This document shows, in pieces, positions 3,980 through 26,186 of a DNA stretch of 26,368 bases. The first letter of the stretch is position 1. Each line of letters opens with the position of its first letter. A program made the position numbers and the translations under genes. The notes beneath the pieces were generated by a model. The model worked only from the letters and a program-made list of their open reading frames with translations. It made no database searches and was not told the origin of the DNA. This DNA is from a virus, in the IMG/VR virus record IMGVR_UViG_3300045988_140494, positions 1-26,368 of that record, one strand, 5' to 3'.

Positions 3980-4508
3980 TACTCAGTACTATGTTGAAGG
4001 ATATGCTACAACATTTGAACCTTATGTTCTTTATCGAGATTATCAAGGTAATGATGTATATGAGTTGATTGAGCGTTCAAGTTTGGACAACGCTGATATG
4101 AGTGATATCATCTTCCAATTTGATCATGGAGGAATGGTATATGCACGTACAAGTAATGGTTCACTTATTGTTGAAGTAGATGAACATGGATTGTTTGTTG
4201 CAGCAGATTTAGGAAGAACAGAAGCTGCAAAACGCTTGTACGACAGTATTCAGGCAGGAATGGTTACTCAGATGTCATGGAGGTACATGGTGGATGAGGA
4301 ATCATATGATAGAGATAAAAAGATGTGGACAACACGTAAAGTATCAAAAATTTATGATGTTTCGGCAGTGTCGATTCCTGCAAATGATCAAACATCTATT
4401 GAAGCAAGGGCAAAGTCTTTAATGGATGAAGAACGGACTAAAAAAGAAAATGAAAAGAAACGAGAAAGACTGAGTTTGTTGTTGCAGATTAAGGAGGCTA
4501 TTAATTAA
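3897..4508 (+). CDS. Prohead maturation protease (HK97 / S78-like)
   Basis: YYVEGYATTFEPY and VSAVSIPAND motifs. SD AAGGAGGA lies upstream of the ATG at 3897. It overlaps the portal 3' end by 83 nt; in-frame ATGs at 3927 and 3948 are alternative starts. Confidence 0.85.
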   Translation: MGKPNHSKIQMRSIPFQMNPVTENKRIDTQYYVEGYATTFEPYVLYRDYQGNDVYELIERSSLDNADMSDIIFQFDHGGMVYARTSNGSLIVEVDEHGLFVAADLGRTEAAKRLYDSIQAGMVTQMSWRYMVDEESYDRDKKMWTTRKVSKIYDVSAVSIPANDQTSIEARAKSLMDEERTKKENEKKRERLSLLLQIKEAIN

Positions 4509-5978: not shown

Positions 5979-6281
5979 ATGGCGTTCAATATTTCTGAAA
6001 GCCTTCTAGAACGTGTTAGAACTGCTGCTACAAGAGCTAAATCACATGCTTATGATGATGAAATCAAAACATATATCAGAGCATGTTTATATGATTTGGA
6101 TAGATTAAATATCTTATTTGATGAAGATGATTTAGAAGATGAAATTGTAGTAGCGGTAATAACATATGTAAAGTCAAAATTTGGTACAACGGATGCTTCA
6201 TATAAAGAATCAATGGCTAAAACATATGAGGATTTACGTCAGATTCTTATGACAGATAAATCCCATAAGAAGGTGACATAG
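5979..6281 (+). CDS. Head-tail connector (gp6-like)
   Basis: 100 aa. First gene after the capsid gene. The AYDDEIKTYIRACLYDL segment resembles gp6-like connectors. Confidence 0.6.
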   Translation: MAFNISESLLERVRTAATRAKSHAYDDEIKTYIRACLYDLDRLNILFDEDDLEDEIVVAVITYVKSKFGTTDASYKESMAKTYEDLRQILMTDKSHKKVT

Positions 6282-22302: not shown

Positions 22303-22416
22303 ATGAATGATGAAGAAAAAGTAGTAGATTATGAGAATCTATCAGAAGAAGCAAAAGAAGAATTAAGCAATGGCAAGGAAGAAGGTGTAGATGAAGAATG
22401 TCATATTCCGGATTAG
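22303..22416 (+). CDS. 37-aa acidic peptide between holin and endolysin
   Basis: My own translation is MNDEEKVVDYENLSEEAKEELSNGKEEGVDEECHIPD. It starts 3 nt after the holin stop and overlaps the endolysin start by 19 nt. It is below the ORF-track length cutoff. Confidence 0.35.
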   Translation: MNDEEKVVDYENLSEEAKEELSNGKEEGVDEECHIPD

Positions 22417-23474
22417 CAACATATTGTAACAGAACATCACAACATTATGATGGTCGTTTTGGATATAAGGTTTGTAAAATCACTCCACACTACATGGCTG
22501 CGGCATGGAGTGGTAAACAATGTGCAGATTATTTTGCACGAAACACTCGTCAAGCATCTTCCAATTATTGTATTGGAATTAATGGAGACATTGCATGCAG
22601 TGTTGATGAAGAAAATGCTGCATGGACAAGTTCAAATTGGTTGAATGATTCTCAATCAATTACAATTGAATGTGGAAACATTAATAACGCAACTGGAGAA
22701 ATGACGCAAGCTACTTGGGATAGCTTGGTGAATCTATGTGTTGATATTTGTAAACGATATGGATTTAGATTGAACTATACAGGAAATTCTAGCGGATCAT
22801 TGACTATGCACAAAATGTTTGCGGCTACATCATGCCCTGGAGCATGGTTGGAAGCACGTATGCCACAATTGGCTAATGAAGTAAATGCAAAGTTAGATGG
22901 AAAGGTTGAAACACCAAAACCTACAACTCCAAGTGGAGAAAAATATTCAGTTAATTTACCTATCTGTACAAACACATTGAGTGTGAATTGCTACGGAACT
23001 TCTACAGTTAAAAAAGGTGATTGGTCAGGTGTCATTGGTAGAGTAATTAAAGGAACAAAATATCCATATCGTGTTGATCGTAATGGAGTAGCGATTGGAT
23101 GGACTAATGATGCTGGTATTGATACAGACCCCCATACACCAGTAGGCGCCACACAGTCTAGCGCAGAAGCTATCGACCAAATTTTGCATGAAGGTAGCTA
23201 TGTTACATCTGTACATATGAAAATTGGTAATCAAGGCTTGAAAAAGATTGGTGATGATTTATGTTGCTATCTATCAAAACTGGGTGGTTGGTTCCCAATT
23301 CGTATGGTAGATAAAGTACCTAATTCAGACGGATATAATGACAATGTATTGCATACCACAAATGCAGTAGTCTATGTATCTAGAATCAGAGTCGATGCAG
23401 TGAATGTTCAAAAGAATATTGTCAAGATTGGTGGCGTTTGGGTTGACCCAACACCATTAACAGAAATTGAATAA
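22398..23474 (+). CDS. Endolysin: N-acetylmuramoyl-L-alanine amidase (Amidase_2/PGRP fold) plus C-terminal SH3-like wall-binding region
   Basis: Motifs ITPHYMAA, ASSNYCIGINGDI...ENAAW, SQSITIEC and MHKMF..TSCPG align with PlyG/PlyL-type amidases. Position directly after the holin. Confidence 0.9.
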   Translation: MSYSGLATYCNRTSQHYDGRFGYKVCKITPHYMAAAWSGKQCADYFARNTRQASSNYCIGINGDIACSVDEENAAWTSSNWLNDSQSITIECGNINNATGEMTQATWDSLVNLCVDICKRYGFRLNYTGNSSGSLTMHKMFAATSCPGAWLEARMPQLANEVNAKLDGKVETPKPTTPSGEKYSVNLPICTNTLSVNCYGTSTVKKGDWSGVIGRVIKGTKYPYRVDRNGVAIGWTNDAGIDTDPHTPVGATQSSAEAIDQILHEGSYVTSVHMKIGNQGLKKIGDDLCCYLSKLGGWFPIRMVDKVPNSDGYNDNVLHTTNAVVYVSRIRVDAVNVQKNIVKIGGVWVDPTPLTEIE

Positions 23475-23531: not shown

Positions 23532-23698
23532 TGCGTGAAGCAGTGAGGTACATTTTGGGGTACAAAACAACAAAGTACTATCAAAACACGTAGATAATGA
23601 TGTAAATAACATCAAATATCAATTGATATGAGGTATTTATATAATCCCCTCATCTGCTCCATTGAAATTTAAGCCTTTATTTAAAGGCTTTTTTATTT
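23532..23698 (+). ncRNA. Candidate ~165-nt non-coding transcript (alternatively the attP region)
   Basis: Bounded by the promoter above and the terminator at 23671-23698. The longest plausible ORFs are 12-14 codons and lack good SDs. Hairpins ATGAGG/CCTCAT and palindrome ATATCAATTGATAT (23613-23626). Confidence 0.3.
23671..23698 (+). terminator. Intrinsic terminator
   Basis: AAGCCTTT (23671-23678) pairs with AAAGGCTT (23683-23690), followed by TTTTATTT. Confidence 0.75.
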
Positions 23699-23700
23699 GC

Positions 23701-23753
23701 CTTGGGGTATATTGGGGTATAATTTGATATTAAAATATTGAATTATACCCCTT
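23701..23753. repeat. TTGGGGTAYA repeats (candidate integrase arm-type sites) forming an 11-bp inverted repeat
   Basis: Direct copies at ~23702 and ~23713, an inverted copy AATTATACCCC at 23743-23753, and a further direct copy TTGGGGTACA at ~23553. GGGGTATAATT pairs with AATTATACCCC, followed by a T6 run. Confidence 0.45.
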
Positions 23754-23766
23754 TTTTGCATATTAT
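23738..23766 (+). promoter_or_regulatory. Candidate integrase promoter
   Basis: TTGAAT (23738-23743), 17-nt spacer, TATTAT (23761-23766), overlapping the inverted repeat. Confidence 0.35.
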
Positions 23767-23789
23767 GGACATATAAGAGGGCACAAAAA

Positions 23790-24887
23790 ATGGCAGTGGA
23801 ATTAGATAAGAAGACAGGAAAATATATGTTTGCCGGGAAAATATATAAAGATGGTAAATGTATAAAGAGATATCGTAAGCGTGGTTTTGATTCTAAATGG
23901 GAAGCACAAAAAGCTGAGGTTGAATTTAGGAAAGATTTCTTTATGCTTCCATCAGATATGAATTTTGATAGACTATATAAAGCTTTTAAAGAATATAATA
24001 AAAAATATGTAAAAGAATCAACACTAAAATCAGATGAATATTTGTACAATGTTCTTTCTAAGGAAATGAAAGATATTGATTTTCTAGATAAAAGGCAAAT
24101 GCAAAACTTGATCAACAAATTTGATGAGAAATATTCAAAAGCATACGTATCAAGAATATATTTCTTTTTAAATAAGCTATATAAATTTGGTGTTACTTCT
24201 GAATACATTCCAACCAATCCAATGACATATGTAAAACGTGATCTTAGATTGAATGAAAGAAAAGAAGAAATGACAATATGGCAGCAATATGATTTTGATT
24301 TATTCATTGAAGAAGTGGATGAACAAATGATGAAATGCTTTTATTCTGTTTTATTCTATATGGGATTACGAAAAGGTGAAGCCATGGCCCTACAATGGAA
24401 GGACATTGATTTTAGAAAACAAACTATAGACATCAACAAAACATATAGATACAAAGAGAAAGACCCTAATAAATGGCTTACACCACCAAAAACAAACAAT
24501 AGCTATAGAACTATCACAATGCCTAATACATTGTCTAAAATGCTTCGAGAATGGTTTATAGAATGTTCTAAATGGGATGATTTTACAAAAGATAAATTTG
24601 TGTTTGGATACTATAAACCAATATCACCTCAGACAGTACAAAGAAGATTTGATGATGCATATAATAAGGCAAAAGAAAAAGATGATGGATTGCCTAAAAT
24701 AAGAATTCATGATTTTAGACATTCACACGCATCATTTCTAATTAATAACATGGCAGGTGCTGGATTCTCAGATTTTGACATAGCCAAACGCTTAGGAGAT
24801 ACGGTTGAAACATTGCACAATACATATGCACACTGGTTTGATACAAAAGATAAGAGCATTGTAGATATGATGAATAAGTTGTTATAA
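23790..24887 (+). CDS. int: Tyrosine recombinase / phage integrase with N-terminal arm-binding-type domain
   Basis: Catalytic-region motifs GLRKGEAMAL, HDFRHSHASFLI and TYAHW. N-terminus GKYMFAGKIYKDGKCIKRYRKRGFDSKWEAQKAE is typical of arm-binding domains. SD AAGAGGG upstream. Confidence 0.92.
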   Translation: MAVELDKKTGKYMFAGKIYKDGKCIKRYRKRGFDSKWEAQKAEVEFRKDFFMLPSDMNFDRLYKAFKEYNKKYVKESTLKSDEYLYNVLSKEMKDIDFLDKRQMQNLINKFDEKYSKAYVSRIYFFLNKLYKFGVTSEYIPTNPMTYVKRDLRLNERKEEMTIWQQYDFDLFIEEVDEQMMKCFYSVLFYMGLRKGEAMALQWKDIDFRKQTIDINKTYRYKEKDPNKWLTPPKTNNSYRTITMPNTLSKMLREWFIECSKWDDFTKDKFVFGYYKPISPQTVQRRFDDAYNKAKEKDDGLPKIRIHDFRHSHASFLINNMAGAGFSDFDIAKRLGDTVETLHNTYAHWFDTKDKSIVDMMNKLL

Positions 24888-24943
24888 AAAGTGATATTAG
24901 ATTACACAATGTTACAAAAAAGTACAAAATAGGAGAAATTTGA

Positions 24944-24972
24944 TTGAAATTCACTAGCAAATAATGTAATAT
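24944..24972 (+). promoter_or_regulatory. Candidate promoter of the structured transcript
   Basis: TTGAAA (24944-24949), 17-nt spacer, TAATAT (24967-24972). Confidence 0.45.
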
Positions 24973-24978
24973 ACGGAT

Positions 24979-25249
24979 GAAGATAAGCTTGCTGCTCTAT
25001 CTTGTTTGTCACAGATTAGGTTCTGTTAAGCTATGATTAAGTATTGTGTTCCAGCATGCATAGTGCTTATAGCTTCCGTAGGGTTGTTTGTGTTCACCTC
25101 GAACTGGATAGGTCTATTGGCTGAAAGAAAACATTCTGATTGTGTATGTGAGGATAGAAAGATGGCTATCGCGCACGAAAGTGTCAAGGGTAGGAATGTA
25201 AATTCTGATGAGATGTGGGAACTATCGCCCCACCATATACACAAATTGT
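24979..25249 (+). ncRNA. Candidate structured RNA / long structured leader, family not recognised
   Basis: I count ~41% G+C over 25021-25250, against much more AT-rich flanks. Stop-free 72-codon ORFs lie on both strands at the same place. Several nested helices include a CAC-GAAA-GTG tetraloop hairpin. Promoter upstream and strong terminator downstream. Confidence 0.35.
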
Positions 25250-25287
25250 AGGCCTTGTTAATGCAACAAGGCCTTTACTTTATATTT
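25250..25287 (+). terminator. Strong intrinsic terminator
   Basis: AGGCCTTGTT (25250-25259) pairs with AACAAGGCCT (25265-25274), followed by a T-rich tail. Confidence 0.8.
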
Positions 25288-25300
25288 GGGAGATATAATC

Positions 25301-25669
25301 ATGAATAAATCAAAAAAGATGTTATATAAAATAACAGATGAATATATAGAAACGTTTGGATTGGATGAATCATATAAAGATAAAACTATTGCTTTGTATG
25401 ATGATAGAATAAATCATATAGAAAGACACAGAGAAGATTTTAATGATCCTTTGTTTTTAGATATTGTTTTCAGAGATTTATCATTGATTGTTTCTAATCC
25501 AGATTTTATATCGGAGGACAAAAAGAATAACAGCTTACAAATTGTCAAGAAAATGGAAGACAATGTACTAGTTGCAGTTAGAATAAGTTCAGGGCCAATA
25601 TTAAAAATTAAAACGATTTATCCAATAAATGAAACTAAATACAATAAATTAAAAACAAATAAATTATAA
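25301..25669 (+). CDS. PBECR-like (phage Barnase-EndoU-ColicinE5/D-RelE-like) putative nuclease
   Basis: Pattern ...IALYDDRINHIERHREDF...IVSNPDFISEDKKNNSLQIVKK...VLVAVRIS...IKTIYPINETKYNKL matches my recollection of this family. GGGAG lies 8 nt upstream of the ATG at 25301; the ORF-track TTG at 25286 is unlikely. Confidence 0.55.
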   Translation: MNKSKKMLYKITDEYIETFGLDESYKDKTIALYDDRINHIERHREDFNDPLFLDIVFRDLSLIVSNPDFISEDKKNNSLQIVKKMEDNVLVAVRISSGPILKIKTIYPINETKYNKLKTNKL

Positions 25670-25684
25670 TAGTTAGAGGTGTAT

Positions 25685-25858
25685 ATGAAGATAATAGATT
25701 ATGTAATAAAAGGACTTAAAAATATAAACTTGTTTCCAAAGGTTGAGATTAAAATAGGATCGTTTTATGACGACTATATATCATTATCTAATGATTGGAA
25801 TATAGTTGGTGAAGATATTAAACAAGTTATGAAAGAATACAAAAAGAAAAACAGATAG
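25685..25858 (+). CDS. 57-aa partner protein, unknown function (candidate immunity/antitoxin)
   Basis: My own translation is MKIIDYVIKGLKNINLFPKVEIKIGSFYDDYISLSNDWNIVGEDIKQVMKEYKKKNR. GAGGTG lies upstream. It starts 15 nt after the previous stop and shares that gene's terminator. Confidence 0.5.
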   Translation: MKIIDYVIKGLKNINLFPKVEIKIGSFYDDYISLSNDWNIVGEDIKQVMKEYKKKNR

Positions 25859-25889
25859 TGTATGCTGCTCAACACCACTATCTGTTTTT
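25848..25889 (+). terminator. Intrinsic terminator of the two-gene module
   Basis: AAAACAGATAGTG pairs with CACTATCTGTTTT (stem core 25851-25860 / 25876-25885), followed by a T run. Confidence 0.8.
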
Positions 25890-26064
25890 CATTCTCTGCT
25901 AATCTTTTCTTGAGGAAATAGAAAAAAGCCTAAAATATTTATCATGTACACATGAATAATAACATCACATTTTAAAAAGAGTAATGAAAAATGCAAAATA
26001 TTAATAAATATTTACAAAACAAAATTAGTTAATAATATAACCAAAAGGTCATTTAAGAATTCTA

Positions 26065-26074
26065 CCCCCCCCCC
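26065..26074. repeat. C10 homopolymer tract in a ~370-bp non-coding region
   Basis: Counted directly from the sequence. Highly atypical for this composition. Confidence 0.9.
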
Positions 26075-26158: not shown

Positions 26159-26186
26159 TTGACATATAAAATTTAAGACTTATTAT
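26159..26186 (+). promoter_or_regulatory. Near-consensus promoter (early-type) reading rightwards
   Basis: TTGACA (26159-26164), 16-nt spacer, TATTAT (26181-26186). Inverted TTTGTA/TACAAA half-sites at 26132-26152 lie just upstream. Confidence 0.6.

Follow-up and report, generated by a model that had tools for sequence, protein, structure and literature searches.

What does a phage carry in a short, hairpin-rich interval between its integrase gene and the gene for a small nuclease? We examined this question in a stretch of virus DNA of 26,368 nucleotides (nt), positions 1 to 26,368 of IMG/VR record IMGVR_UViG_3300045988_140494, which we call the window and always take at its full length. An earlier note on this DNA, made from its letters alone, had proposed that the interval yields a novel structured RNA. 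We found that 24975-25285 is a single non-coding unit comprising a promoter, two 5' hairpins, the drum RNA, a 3-nt linker, the skipping-rope RNA and an intrinsic terminator (Table 1), and the identification of the region as these two noncoding RNAs is almost certain. Drum and skipping-rope were described by Weinberg et al. 2017 (PMC5737381) as highly conserved, terminator-followed RNAs with no function assigned, and the same study judged both motifs unlikely to be riboswitches or self-cleaving ribozymes and located them only rarely in 5' untranslated regions (UTRs). The folds themselves are already catalogued; new here is a lineage-specific fusion of the two known motifs, in inverted order with a PBECR3 nuclease gene.

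Two catalogued RNA folds in one transcript

Scanned over its whole length against Rfam with curated thresholds, the window gave exactly two matches, both inside the RNA region. Each spans the complete model of a curated family, and the idea of a novel RNA gives way to these full-length matches. For drum, membership is supported by the score and the full-model coverage, and the window copy shares with the rest of the family the invariant core, a promoter of its own and a 5' hairpin. Its context is different. Elsewhere, drum is immediately followed by a terminator and, in the sampled cases, then by PBECR4, whereas in the window skipping-rope begins 3 nt on, the first terminator lies 110 nt further, and the gene beyond is PBECR3. 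The drum helices covary, with compensatory changes at 15 of 17 consensus pairs among 18 relatives; homologues were identified by the conserved core pattern together with Rfam, and the MAFFT alignment offsets the window lineage by 2 nt.

For skipping-rope, 62 distinct RNAs were gathered from viral contigs by a 22-base pattern, an earlier 17-base pattern having given mostly chance matches. Over these RNAs, 96.6% of the cells in helices P1, P2 and P4 are paired, compared with 36-47% when the partner is slid, and double-change cells number 331 against 113 ± 10 in shuffles. Taken singly, the three helices are 93-100% paired and show double changes at 13 of their 18 pairs, and the window forms all of them. 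Our own covariance model of the family scores the window copy at 66.9 bits. The loops of P2 and P4 also kiss to form a pseudoknot, in which the three shared pairs are 99.5% paired and covarying (GC 48, AU 10, GU 3; UA 26, CG 21, UG 15). The triplets involved are GGC/GCC, GGU/ACC and GAU/AUC, the last being that of the window subtype. The earlier note had named homology and covariation analysis as the way to check its RNA, and the stems of both RNAs do carry compensatory changes.

The features that place the window copy in the skipping-rope family are its score, an enclosing P1 with three hairpins, a 3' Rho-independent terminator and an adjacent PBECR3 gene (in inverted order relative to the majority). 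All four helices, the GAGG and GAGAUG joiners, the pseudoknot and the association with one protein family are likewise shared. The differences lie in the P2 loop (AAAGAUGG) and P4 loop (AACUAUCGC), which allow a pseudoknot of up to 5 base pairs (bp), in a ~25-nt insert hairpin within P3 that is specific to the window subtype, in the placement of the RNA before PBECR3 and not after it, and in the drum joined to its 5' end.

The helices drawn by hand in the earlier note reappear in the family models: 24980-24985/24998-25003 is the 5' hairpin, the GCAUGC-tipped hairpin 25028-25045/25062-25075 is drum P1 plus P2, and 25153-25170, 25173-25184 (with its GAAA tetraloop) and 25215-25233 are P2, P3 and P4 of skipping-rope. 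A long-range pairing thought to compete with the local hairpins is also present, as the closing stem P1 of skipping-rope, but it encloses those hairpins and does not compete with them.

The promoter, the terminator, the rise in G+C and a pair of mirror-image open reading frames (ORFs) are all there as first described, and the Rfam matches and the covariation agree with a structured non-coding RNA between promoter and terminator. In 25000-25299 the G+C fraction is 0.40-0.41; the integrase gene has 0.24-0.33 and the DNA downstream 0.21-0.30. The minimum free energy fold of 24975-25285 reaches -91.7 kcal/mol, a modest z=-2.5, and recovers the skipping-rope architecture and the terminator unaided. 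Promoter-type matches in the region are not above chance (26 found, 22.1 expected from shuffles). Twelve related cassettes in which an RNA precedes a nuclease gene provide a comparison. All 12 have a promoter-like site that matches 9-12 of 12 positions and whose end lies 21-39 nt (in one locus 70 nt) ahead of the RNA model. In each, the terminator is a G+C-rich hairpin (-16 to -22 kcal/mol) with a U tract, and a Shine-Dalgarno (SD) sequence and start codon come within the next ~20-30 nt, with no space for a second promoter. Most other drum loci also have a 6-8 bp hairpin of covarying sequence ahead of drum. The transcription start proposed for the window is credible because its promoter and its 5' hairpin at 24980-25003 match the pattern of these cassettes. 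Terminator-type sites number 3 against 0.8 expected; the terminator is kept in relatives by compensatory changes (L009, L013), the gap with the terminator folds at -16.9 kcal/mol, and the PBECR3 start codon lies 26 nt beyond.

Base pairing between the terminator's U tract and the purine-rich SD region is predicted for most of the 12 cassettes, including that of the window (25275-25299). This pairing could damp translation of read-through transcripts, or it could merely mirror the U-rich and purine-rich composition of the two segments.

A protein product had been considered as well, either a small membrane protein of the type I toxin kind from the 72-amino-acid (aa) ORF on the + strand or the product of a 29-codon ORF at 25162-25251. 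Both candidate ORFs exist, and the 72-aa ORF has a hydrophobic N-terminal part and is intact in the closest relatives. That frame is intact only within the same phage lineage, however, and contains stop codons in 11 of 15 drum RNAs of other lineages and in 38 of 63 skipping-rope RNAs, which undoes the toxin proposal. The ATG of the 29-codon ORF falls in the P2 loop and is not kept, the loop reading AAAGGCUCC in the common, ATG-less subtype. The candidate ORFs of the RNA region have no Pfam match, and the substitutions in the stems are compensatory, as for an RNA. A coding function for the region is thus barely conceivable, and the mirror ORFs, whose frames are not conserved, are the artefacts that the earlier note had taken them for.

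Nuclease genes beside the two RNAs

The gene after the terminator had been described as PBECR-like, and Pfam identifies the ORF at 25301-25669 as a solo PBECR3 domain (PF18812, E=5.2e-14, 52.6 bits vs 30), 59 nt downstream of the skipping-rope model match, with PBECR3 and PBECR2 as its only Pfam matches; the pairing of RNA and gene recurs in many genomes. PBECR domains were defined by Iyer et al. Among 51 relatives, H39, P67, S78, K83 and K113 are invariant and T105 or a Ser equivalent is kept; a conserved His with a C-terminal Thr or Ser is the PBECR active-site pattern of PMC5512222. PBECR3 is a predicted endoribonuclease of the BECR/RelE fold and of the metal-independent class. The AlphaFold2 model has a predicted local distance difference test (pLDDT) score of 91.6, and the nearest solved folds found with Foldseek in the PDB are HigB2, a Salmonella RelE/ParE-type toxin, BrnT, RelE1 and Cami1, all of them weak matches with E of at least 0.016. 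In PHROGs, the matching families were only ones without an assigned function. The protein search for close relatives returned only near-identical phages and two ~65% identical relatives, and a profile of the window subtype of PBECR3 found nothing in species-representative genomes.

Skipping-rope and PBECR3 are found together in unrelated settings. The two ~65% relatives sit in chromosomal surroundings that have nothing in common, one flanked by a hydrolase gene and by sugar-utilization genes and the other by mnmE and an R2K gene, and both have skipping-rope, terminator and PBECR3, with no drum. The species-representative bacterial genomes gave 120 skipping-rope loci, a few of them chance matches in high-G+C genomes. 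A PBECR3 ORF stands at 75 of these loci, and at 65 of the 102 that have at least 700 nt of flank on both sides. At 74 of these 75 loci PBECR3 is directly upstream of the RNA, on the same strand and 15-100 nt away. PBECR3-like sequence was detected by tblastn beside the RNA at 14 further loci, as remnants, a pseudogene, edge-cut copies and one intact downstream gene, and 30 of 85 viral skipping-rope loci have a PBECR3 ORF. From the protein side, skipping-rope lies 20-45 nt past the stop codon in all four sampled PBECR3 genes (Lacrimispora sphenoides, Aerococcus mictus and two metagenomic clusters).

Drum has its own partner in PBECR4. Drum loci of other lineages start with a promoter close to consensus and a 5' hairpin that covaries; after drum come a strong terminator and a PBECR4 gene (PF18813, E=3e-36). 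Drum lies 45-125 nt upstream of PBECR4 in 4 of 4 sampled cases (Blautia sp. MSJ-19 and three metagenomic clusters) and in three viral loci. A PBECR4 profile found only 5 loci in viral contigs, 4 of them already known. Near the window drum, no PBECR4-like ORF is present within 2.5 kilobases (kb), ORFs elsewhere in the window having been left unscanned. The window departs from both canonical modules, "drum, terminator, PBECR4" and "PBECR3, skipping-rope". The tandem of drum and skipping-rope occurs in 8 of 197 distinct skipping-rope contexts, all of this phage lineage.

The window order of RNA, terminator and PBECR3 is seen in six divergent lineages: the window, L009, L013, L331 (an Erysipelotrichaceae metagenome-assembled genome), L375 and L391. 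Protein identity in L009, L013, L375 and L391 is 41-64%, compared with 78-88% for the RNA, a figure inflated in L375 and L391 because these were retrieved by the exact RNA core; for L331, where the RNA alone was measured, it is 81%. The window RNA subtype goes with a distinct PBECR3 subtype as well as with the inverted gene order. No antitoxin or immunity ORF is conserved beside PBECR3 across loci. We consider it very probable that the RNAs and the PBECR nucleases are functional partners. Our literature search, which did not extend to the Weinberg et al. supplement naming associated proteins, found no paper that names PBECR together with drum or skipping-rope.

Both RNAs also occur without a nuclease. 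In this phage lineage, the contents of the slot after the integrase gene differ. The two RNAs may be accompanied by PBECR3, by some other small gene or by no gene; elsewhere the slot has a small ORF and a gene for a DUF2335-like membrane protein ahead of skipping-rope, or RNA, terminator and small ORF without PBECR3. In L372 and L374, PBECR3 is precisely missing and the RNA is kept. By tblastn, the last ~16 codons of PBECR3 and an intact RNA remain in ten Streptococcus mitis-group species, and in L217 a PBECR4 gene split by a frameshift stands beside an intact drum. A 92-kb IMG/VR contig (L222, 2064-8424) carries an array of 13 transfer RNAs (tRNAs) in which each RNA stands alone, drum at 4289-4397 and skipping-rope at 6142-6233, 1 nt behind a tRNA; a look for PBECR-like ORFs near this drum was negative. 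In L226, a tRNA begins within a few nt after drum. Unannotated skipping-rope RNAs also lie right after the autolysin (lysin) gene in the deposited genomes of two temperate phages of S. mitis, cultured or well defined: MissC (OL774872, 5764-5866) and Javan308 (MK448902, 41974-42071). Orphan skipping-rope RNAs are common, which means that the RNA has to serve some purpose by itself.

Several unusual arrangements were also observed. In Lacrimispora sphenoides (L350, 2946-3136), two tandem skipping-rope RNAs 26 nt apart follow one PBECR3 gene, forming a minimal repeat array. In Streptococcus cuniculipharyngis (L319), a PBECR4-like ORF of 194 aa, and not PBECR3, is directly upstream of skipping-rope, which looks like cross-pairing, and a Bacilli-1 RNA (RF02931) lies 630 nt away. 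Five large IMG/VR contigs (L150, L193, L203, L205 and L208) have skipping-rope ~220 nt downstream of a 515-aa RRXRR+HNH protein (PF14239, PF01844), an IscB-like or homing endonuclease, with a ClpP-like or 150-aa gene downstream and no PBECR3 within 2.5 kb, and in L247 an NYN-like 252-aa gene is just upstream of skipping-rope. Drum takes part in a second fusion in L218 (485-638; the same in L214), where it is followed by a DUF3800-XI RNA (62.5 bits) with the two model matches overlapping by 4 nt; this fusion links the drum, skipping-rope and DUF3800 RNA groups. In L364 (869-1537) and L365, a gene for an NYN-domain (PF01936) nuclease stands just upstream of the drum-PBECR4 cassette, making NYN a possible third nuclease family in such neighborhoods. 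In L212, an IS200/IS605-type TnpA gene lies ~180 nt past the drum terminator, at the expected place of PBECR4, an instance of nuclease loss.

What the RNAs may do

The reading that we favor, at a probability of roughly 45%, is that the RNAs are neutralizing partners (antitoxin or immunity) of cognate RelE/BECR-fold RNases in a cassette resembling type III toxin-antitoxin (TA) systems. The promoter would supply structured RNA in excess, and the terminator would allow a fraction of transcripts to reach the nuclease gene, which would have no promoter of its own. The compact, pseudoknotted RNA would bind its cognate RNase and keep it inactive, as a pseudo-substrate or an inhibitor. A drop in RNA supply or stability, caused by infection with another phage or by loss of the element, would then free the RNase. 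The cassette may act in the lysogen as a defense or addiction module, because it occupies the lysogenic-conversion slot beside the integrase, and orphan RNA copies might be trans-acting antidotes, as pseudo-ToxI is for PhiTE. We favor neutralization because the layout would give much RNA and little RNase, as in type III systems; because the partner has a classic toxin fold with no protein antitoxin conserved beside it; because the RNA stands where BECR toxins usually carry an immunity or antitoxin gene; and because nuclease genes decay or vanish while the RNA persists, and nuclease-less phage copies exist.

Several points weigh against this reading. The commonest layout puts the RNA into the 3' UTR of the nuclease transcript, which gives no obvious excess of RNA over protein. 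Tandem Repeats Finder detected no repeats, the hallmark of type III antitoxins, in 24850-25350; PADLOC had no match for the PBECR3 protein; and many skipping-rope RNAs have no nuclease within 2.5 kb. The RNAs were retrieved by their exact conserved core from a genome set of mostly related streptococci, the protein-side samples are small (four PBECR3 and four PBECR4, where solo PBECR3 genes form 1114 clusters and PBECR4 genes 497) and came from top-scoring matches, and the sampled loci are all same-strand and may be biased. The part given to drum, finally, is speculation: as a second, stacked neutralizing RNA, it might confer cross-immunity against the PBECR4-type RNases that competing elements bring along.

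That the RNA and the nuclease gene are tightly adjacent and co-transcribed from one strand would also fit if the RNA were a positive partner of the nuclease and the unit a ribonucleoprotein RNase. The RNA might then serve as scaffold or activator, lend specificity or guide the enzyme as a subunit, or be a precursor that PBECR3 processes. The commonest layout makes RNA 1:1 with the mRNA and suits a stoichiometric partner better than an antitoxin in excess, the RNA is more conserved than the protein, and Weinberg et al. (PMC5737381) suspected a 'biochemically challenging task'. We nevertheless regard a positive partner as rather unlikely: the RNAs are kept, and still score highly, where the nuclease has been deleted or was never present, although a cofactor without its enzyme should decay, they stand in a tRNA array without a nuclease, and the RNA-terminator-nuclease layout makes far more RNA than protein. 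Alternatively, the RNAs may be independent of the nucleases, as phage small RNAs, RNA-stability or 3'-end elements or tRNA-like molecules, and share with them only the status of mobile cargo. About one-third of skipping-rope loci lack a PBECR3 in the vicinity, the RNA is found behind lysin genes and other operons with a terminator after it, and both RNAs lie among tRNAs in L222, as drum abuts a tRNA in L226. Yet two unrelated folds each have their own PBECR family from the protein side, the pairs occur in unrelated chromosomal and phage contexts with a fixed distance and strand, and a 3'-end element needs no four-helix pseudoknotted fold. The RNA subtype also tracks the protein subtype and the gene order, which hitch-hiking does not predict, and we find independence quite improbable.

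The earlier note had suggested a cis-regulatory or RNA-antitoxin relationship with the downstream gene. The tie to the PBECR gene holds, and an antitoxin is the best reading that we can infer, but a purely cis-acting leader, riboswitch-like or a protein-binding attenuator, that only sets terminator read-through into PBECR3 has very little going for it. The RNA and terminator do stand in the nuclease 5' leader in the window and in all drum-PBECR4 cassettes, and the U tract can pair with the purine-rich SD. Such a leader is nevertheless unlikely because the RNA is mostly 3' of the nuclease gene, as skipping-rope is in 74 of 75 genome loci, and also occurs alone; the motifs are, moreover, rare in 5' UTRs (Weinberg et al., PMC5737381). 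No alternative pairing joins the RNA and the terminator, and there is no overlapping expression platform because 6 nt separate the end of P1 (25243) from the first base of the terminator stem (25250).

The neutralizing reading invites comparison with known systems, to begin with those of type III. Type III antitoxins are arrays of 34-36-nt repeats, their toxins are ToxN-like, and phage PhiTE escapes ToxIN by means of a pseudo-ToxI RNA. These features, for ToxIN, CptIN and TenpIN, are said to go back to Fineran in 2009 and Blower in 2012. The window cassette has the same order of promoter, RNA gene, intrinsic terminator and endoribonuclease gene, and its relatives are likewise small, mobile two-part cassettes in phages, prophages and chromosomes, with orphan phage RNAs that recall pseudo-ToxI. 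In contrast, the RNA is a single pseudoknotted molecule and not a repeat array, the protein is of the BECR/RelE type and not ToxN, CptN or TenpN, and the nuclease gene comes first in most loci. The cassette should not be filed as a type III TA system because the repeat array and a ToxN-family toxin are both missing. BECR/RelE toxins with protein inhibitors (RelBE, HigBA, colicin E5/D-Imm, CdiA-CT/CdiI and barnase-barstar) share the fold class and an adjacent partner gene, but the conserved neighbor here is an RNA, not a protein. The nearest conceptual relatives are the DUF3800 RNA motifs (DUF3800-I to -XI; Weinberg et al. 2017), which are also structured RNAs, often with a terminator behind them, and each belongs with a nuclease-like gene. 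The DUF3800 protein resembles RNase H and has links to defense and mobile elements (PMC13594972, PMC7736814). The protein family is a different one, however, and the window has no DUF3800 gene or RNA.

A wider proposal is possible, if still on the doubtful side. Drum and skipping-rope would represent a new class of RNA inhibitors of BECR/RelE-fold RNases, either antitoxins or immunity RNAs, with one fold per PBECR family, stacked by phages for multi-nuclease immunity as in the window. The nuclease-less copies in the tRNA arrays of large phages might then be a counter-defense against PBECR abortive infection or injected PBECR effectors. DUF3800 RNAs may follow the same idea, in a general "structured RNA plus nuclease" conflict module apart from type III TA.

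Since 2017, drum and skipping-rope have been listed as complex bacterial RNAs without an assigned function, a list that in the judgment of their discoverers probably includes sophisticated biochemistry. With the census, the locus ties each RNA to a small solo BECR-fold RNase, PBECR4 or PBECR3, making function a concrete and cheaply testable question. The cassette is ~750 nt long, and versions are found in the cultured Streptococcus mitis phages MissC and Javan308 and in the isolates Lacrimispora sphenoides, Aerococcus mictus and Blautia sp. MSJ-19. If the RNA neutralizes the RNase, a RelE/BECR-fold toxin would for the first time have an RNA antitoxin, the tRNA-array orphans would be explained and prophage defense would gain a new module. 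If it is a cofactor, the pair would constitute a new small ribonucleoprotein nuclease.

Genomic setting of the cassette

The window comes from an uncultured temperate siphophage of a low-G+C Firmicute and represents the end of its genome with the late, lysis and integration genes. The large terminase of this phage is <48% identical to the terminases of Butyrivibrio phage Arawn and of gut phages, and the DNA at 24880-25700 has no match among 50,697 GenBank phages. A scan of the window for tRNA and transfer-messenger RNA (tmRNA) found none, and a reading of the region as a tmRNA or att-site RNA was dropped for that reason. The features of the cassette and its surroundings are given in Table 1.

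Table 1. Positions of the RNA cassette and neighboring features in the window.
Feature	Position	Strand	Details
Amidase endolysin gene	22398-23474		Upstream of the RNA region
Tyrosine integrase gene	23790-24887		Upstream of the RNA region
Promoter-like site	24944..24972	+	TTGAAA 24944-24949, 17-nt spacer, TAATAT 24967-24972; 9/12 matches
5' hairpin, transcript start	24980..25003	+	24980-24985/24998-25003, AAGAUAAGC / GCUCUAUCUU; from fold
Small hairpin ACAGA/UCUGU	25011..25026	+	Directly 5' of drum; from fold; kept in L004, L147, L166, L206
Mirror ORF	25033-25251	+	72 aa
Mirror ORF	25026-25244	-	72 aa
Drum RNA (Rfam RF02958)	25028..25139	+	74.8 bits vs gathering 43; model 1-112 of 112; E=1.3e-12
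Drum helix P1	25028-25031/25072-25075		
Drum helix P2	25038-25049/25058-25069		
Drum conserved core	25083-25131		GGGUU..ACC.C.A.C.G..UAG..GAAAGAAAA
Skipping-rope RNA (Rfam RF02924)	25141..25243	+	Model match 25143-25241; 57.9 bits vs 36.7; model 1-80 of 80; E=1.2e-11
Skipping-rope helix P1	25141-25150/25234-25243		
Skipping-rope helix P2	25153-25157/25166-25170		
Skipping-rope helix P3	25172-25176/25181-25184 plus 25210		
Subtype-specific insert hairpin in P3	25193-25197/25201-25205		
Skipping-rope helix P4	25215-25219/25229-25233		
Loop-loop pseudoknot	25161..25226	+	GAUGG 25161-25165 (P2 loop) with CUAUC 25222-25226 (P4 loop)
Intrinsic terminator	25250..25284	+	10-bp stem 25250-25274, 5 G-C pairs, then T-rich tail UUUACUUUAU
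PBECR3 gene	25288..25669	+	SD GGGAGA 25288-25293, ATG 25301, stop ends 25669; 122 aa
Small conserved ORF, role not assigned	25685..25858	+	57 aa from ATG 25685; listed as 59 aa from GTG 25679
Second terminator-like hairpin	near 25852-25890		After the small ORF

The small ORF that follows PBECR3 has no Pfam or PADLOC match. Homologues of 57-71 aa with the motif IKIG[ST]F.DD..SLSNDW..[IV]G.DI accompany window-subtype skipping-rope RNAs in sister phages, with or without PBECR3 (L187 1721-1936, L372, L374). It is probably co-transcribed with the RNA-PBECR3 unit, and its membership in the module is uncertain. In L187, the homologue precedes a DUF2335-like membrane protein gene whose stop codon sits 1 nt from the RNA.

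The phage attachment site is also visible in the window. The attP core at 23645-23661 (context 23540-23800) reads TCCCCTCATCTGCTCCA, identical to the 3'-terminal letters of a host tRNA gene in L001 and L187, which are integrated prophages. The identity of the window to these two prophages begins exactly at the attP core, and to its left the window goes on with the endolysin region and thus represents the excised or circular form. After the core come GGGGTATA repeats and a 17-bp inverted repeat (23714-23751), which may be arm-type sites. Further downstream, a C10 homopolymer (26065-26074) lies ~85 nt upstream of a consensus promoter, TTGACA-16-TATTAT (26159-26186), that belongs to the following gene (from 26231). 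In the sister phage L187 the tract is C9, and it could be a phase-variable switch.

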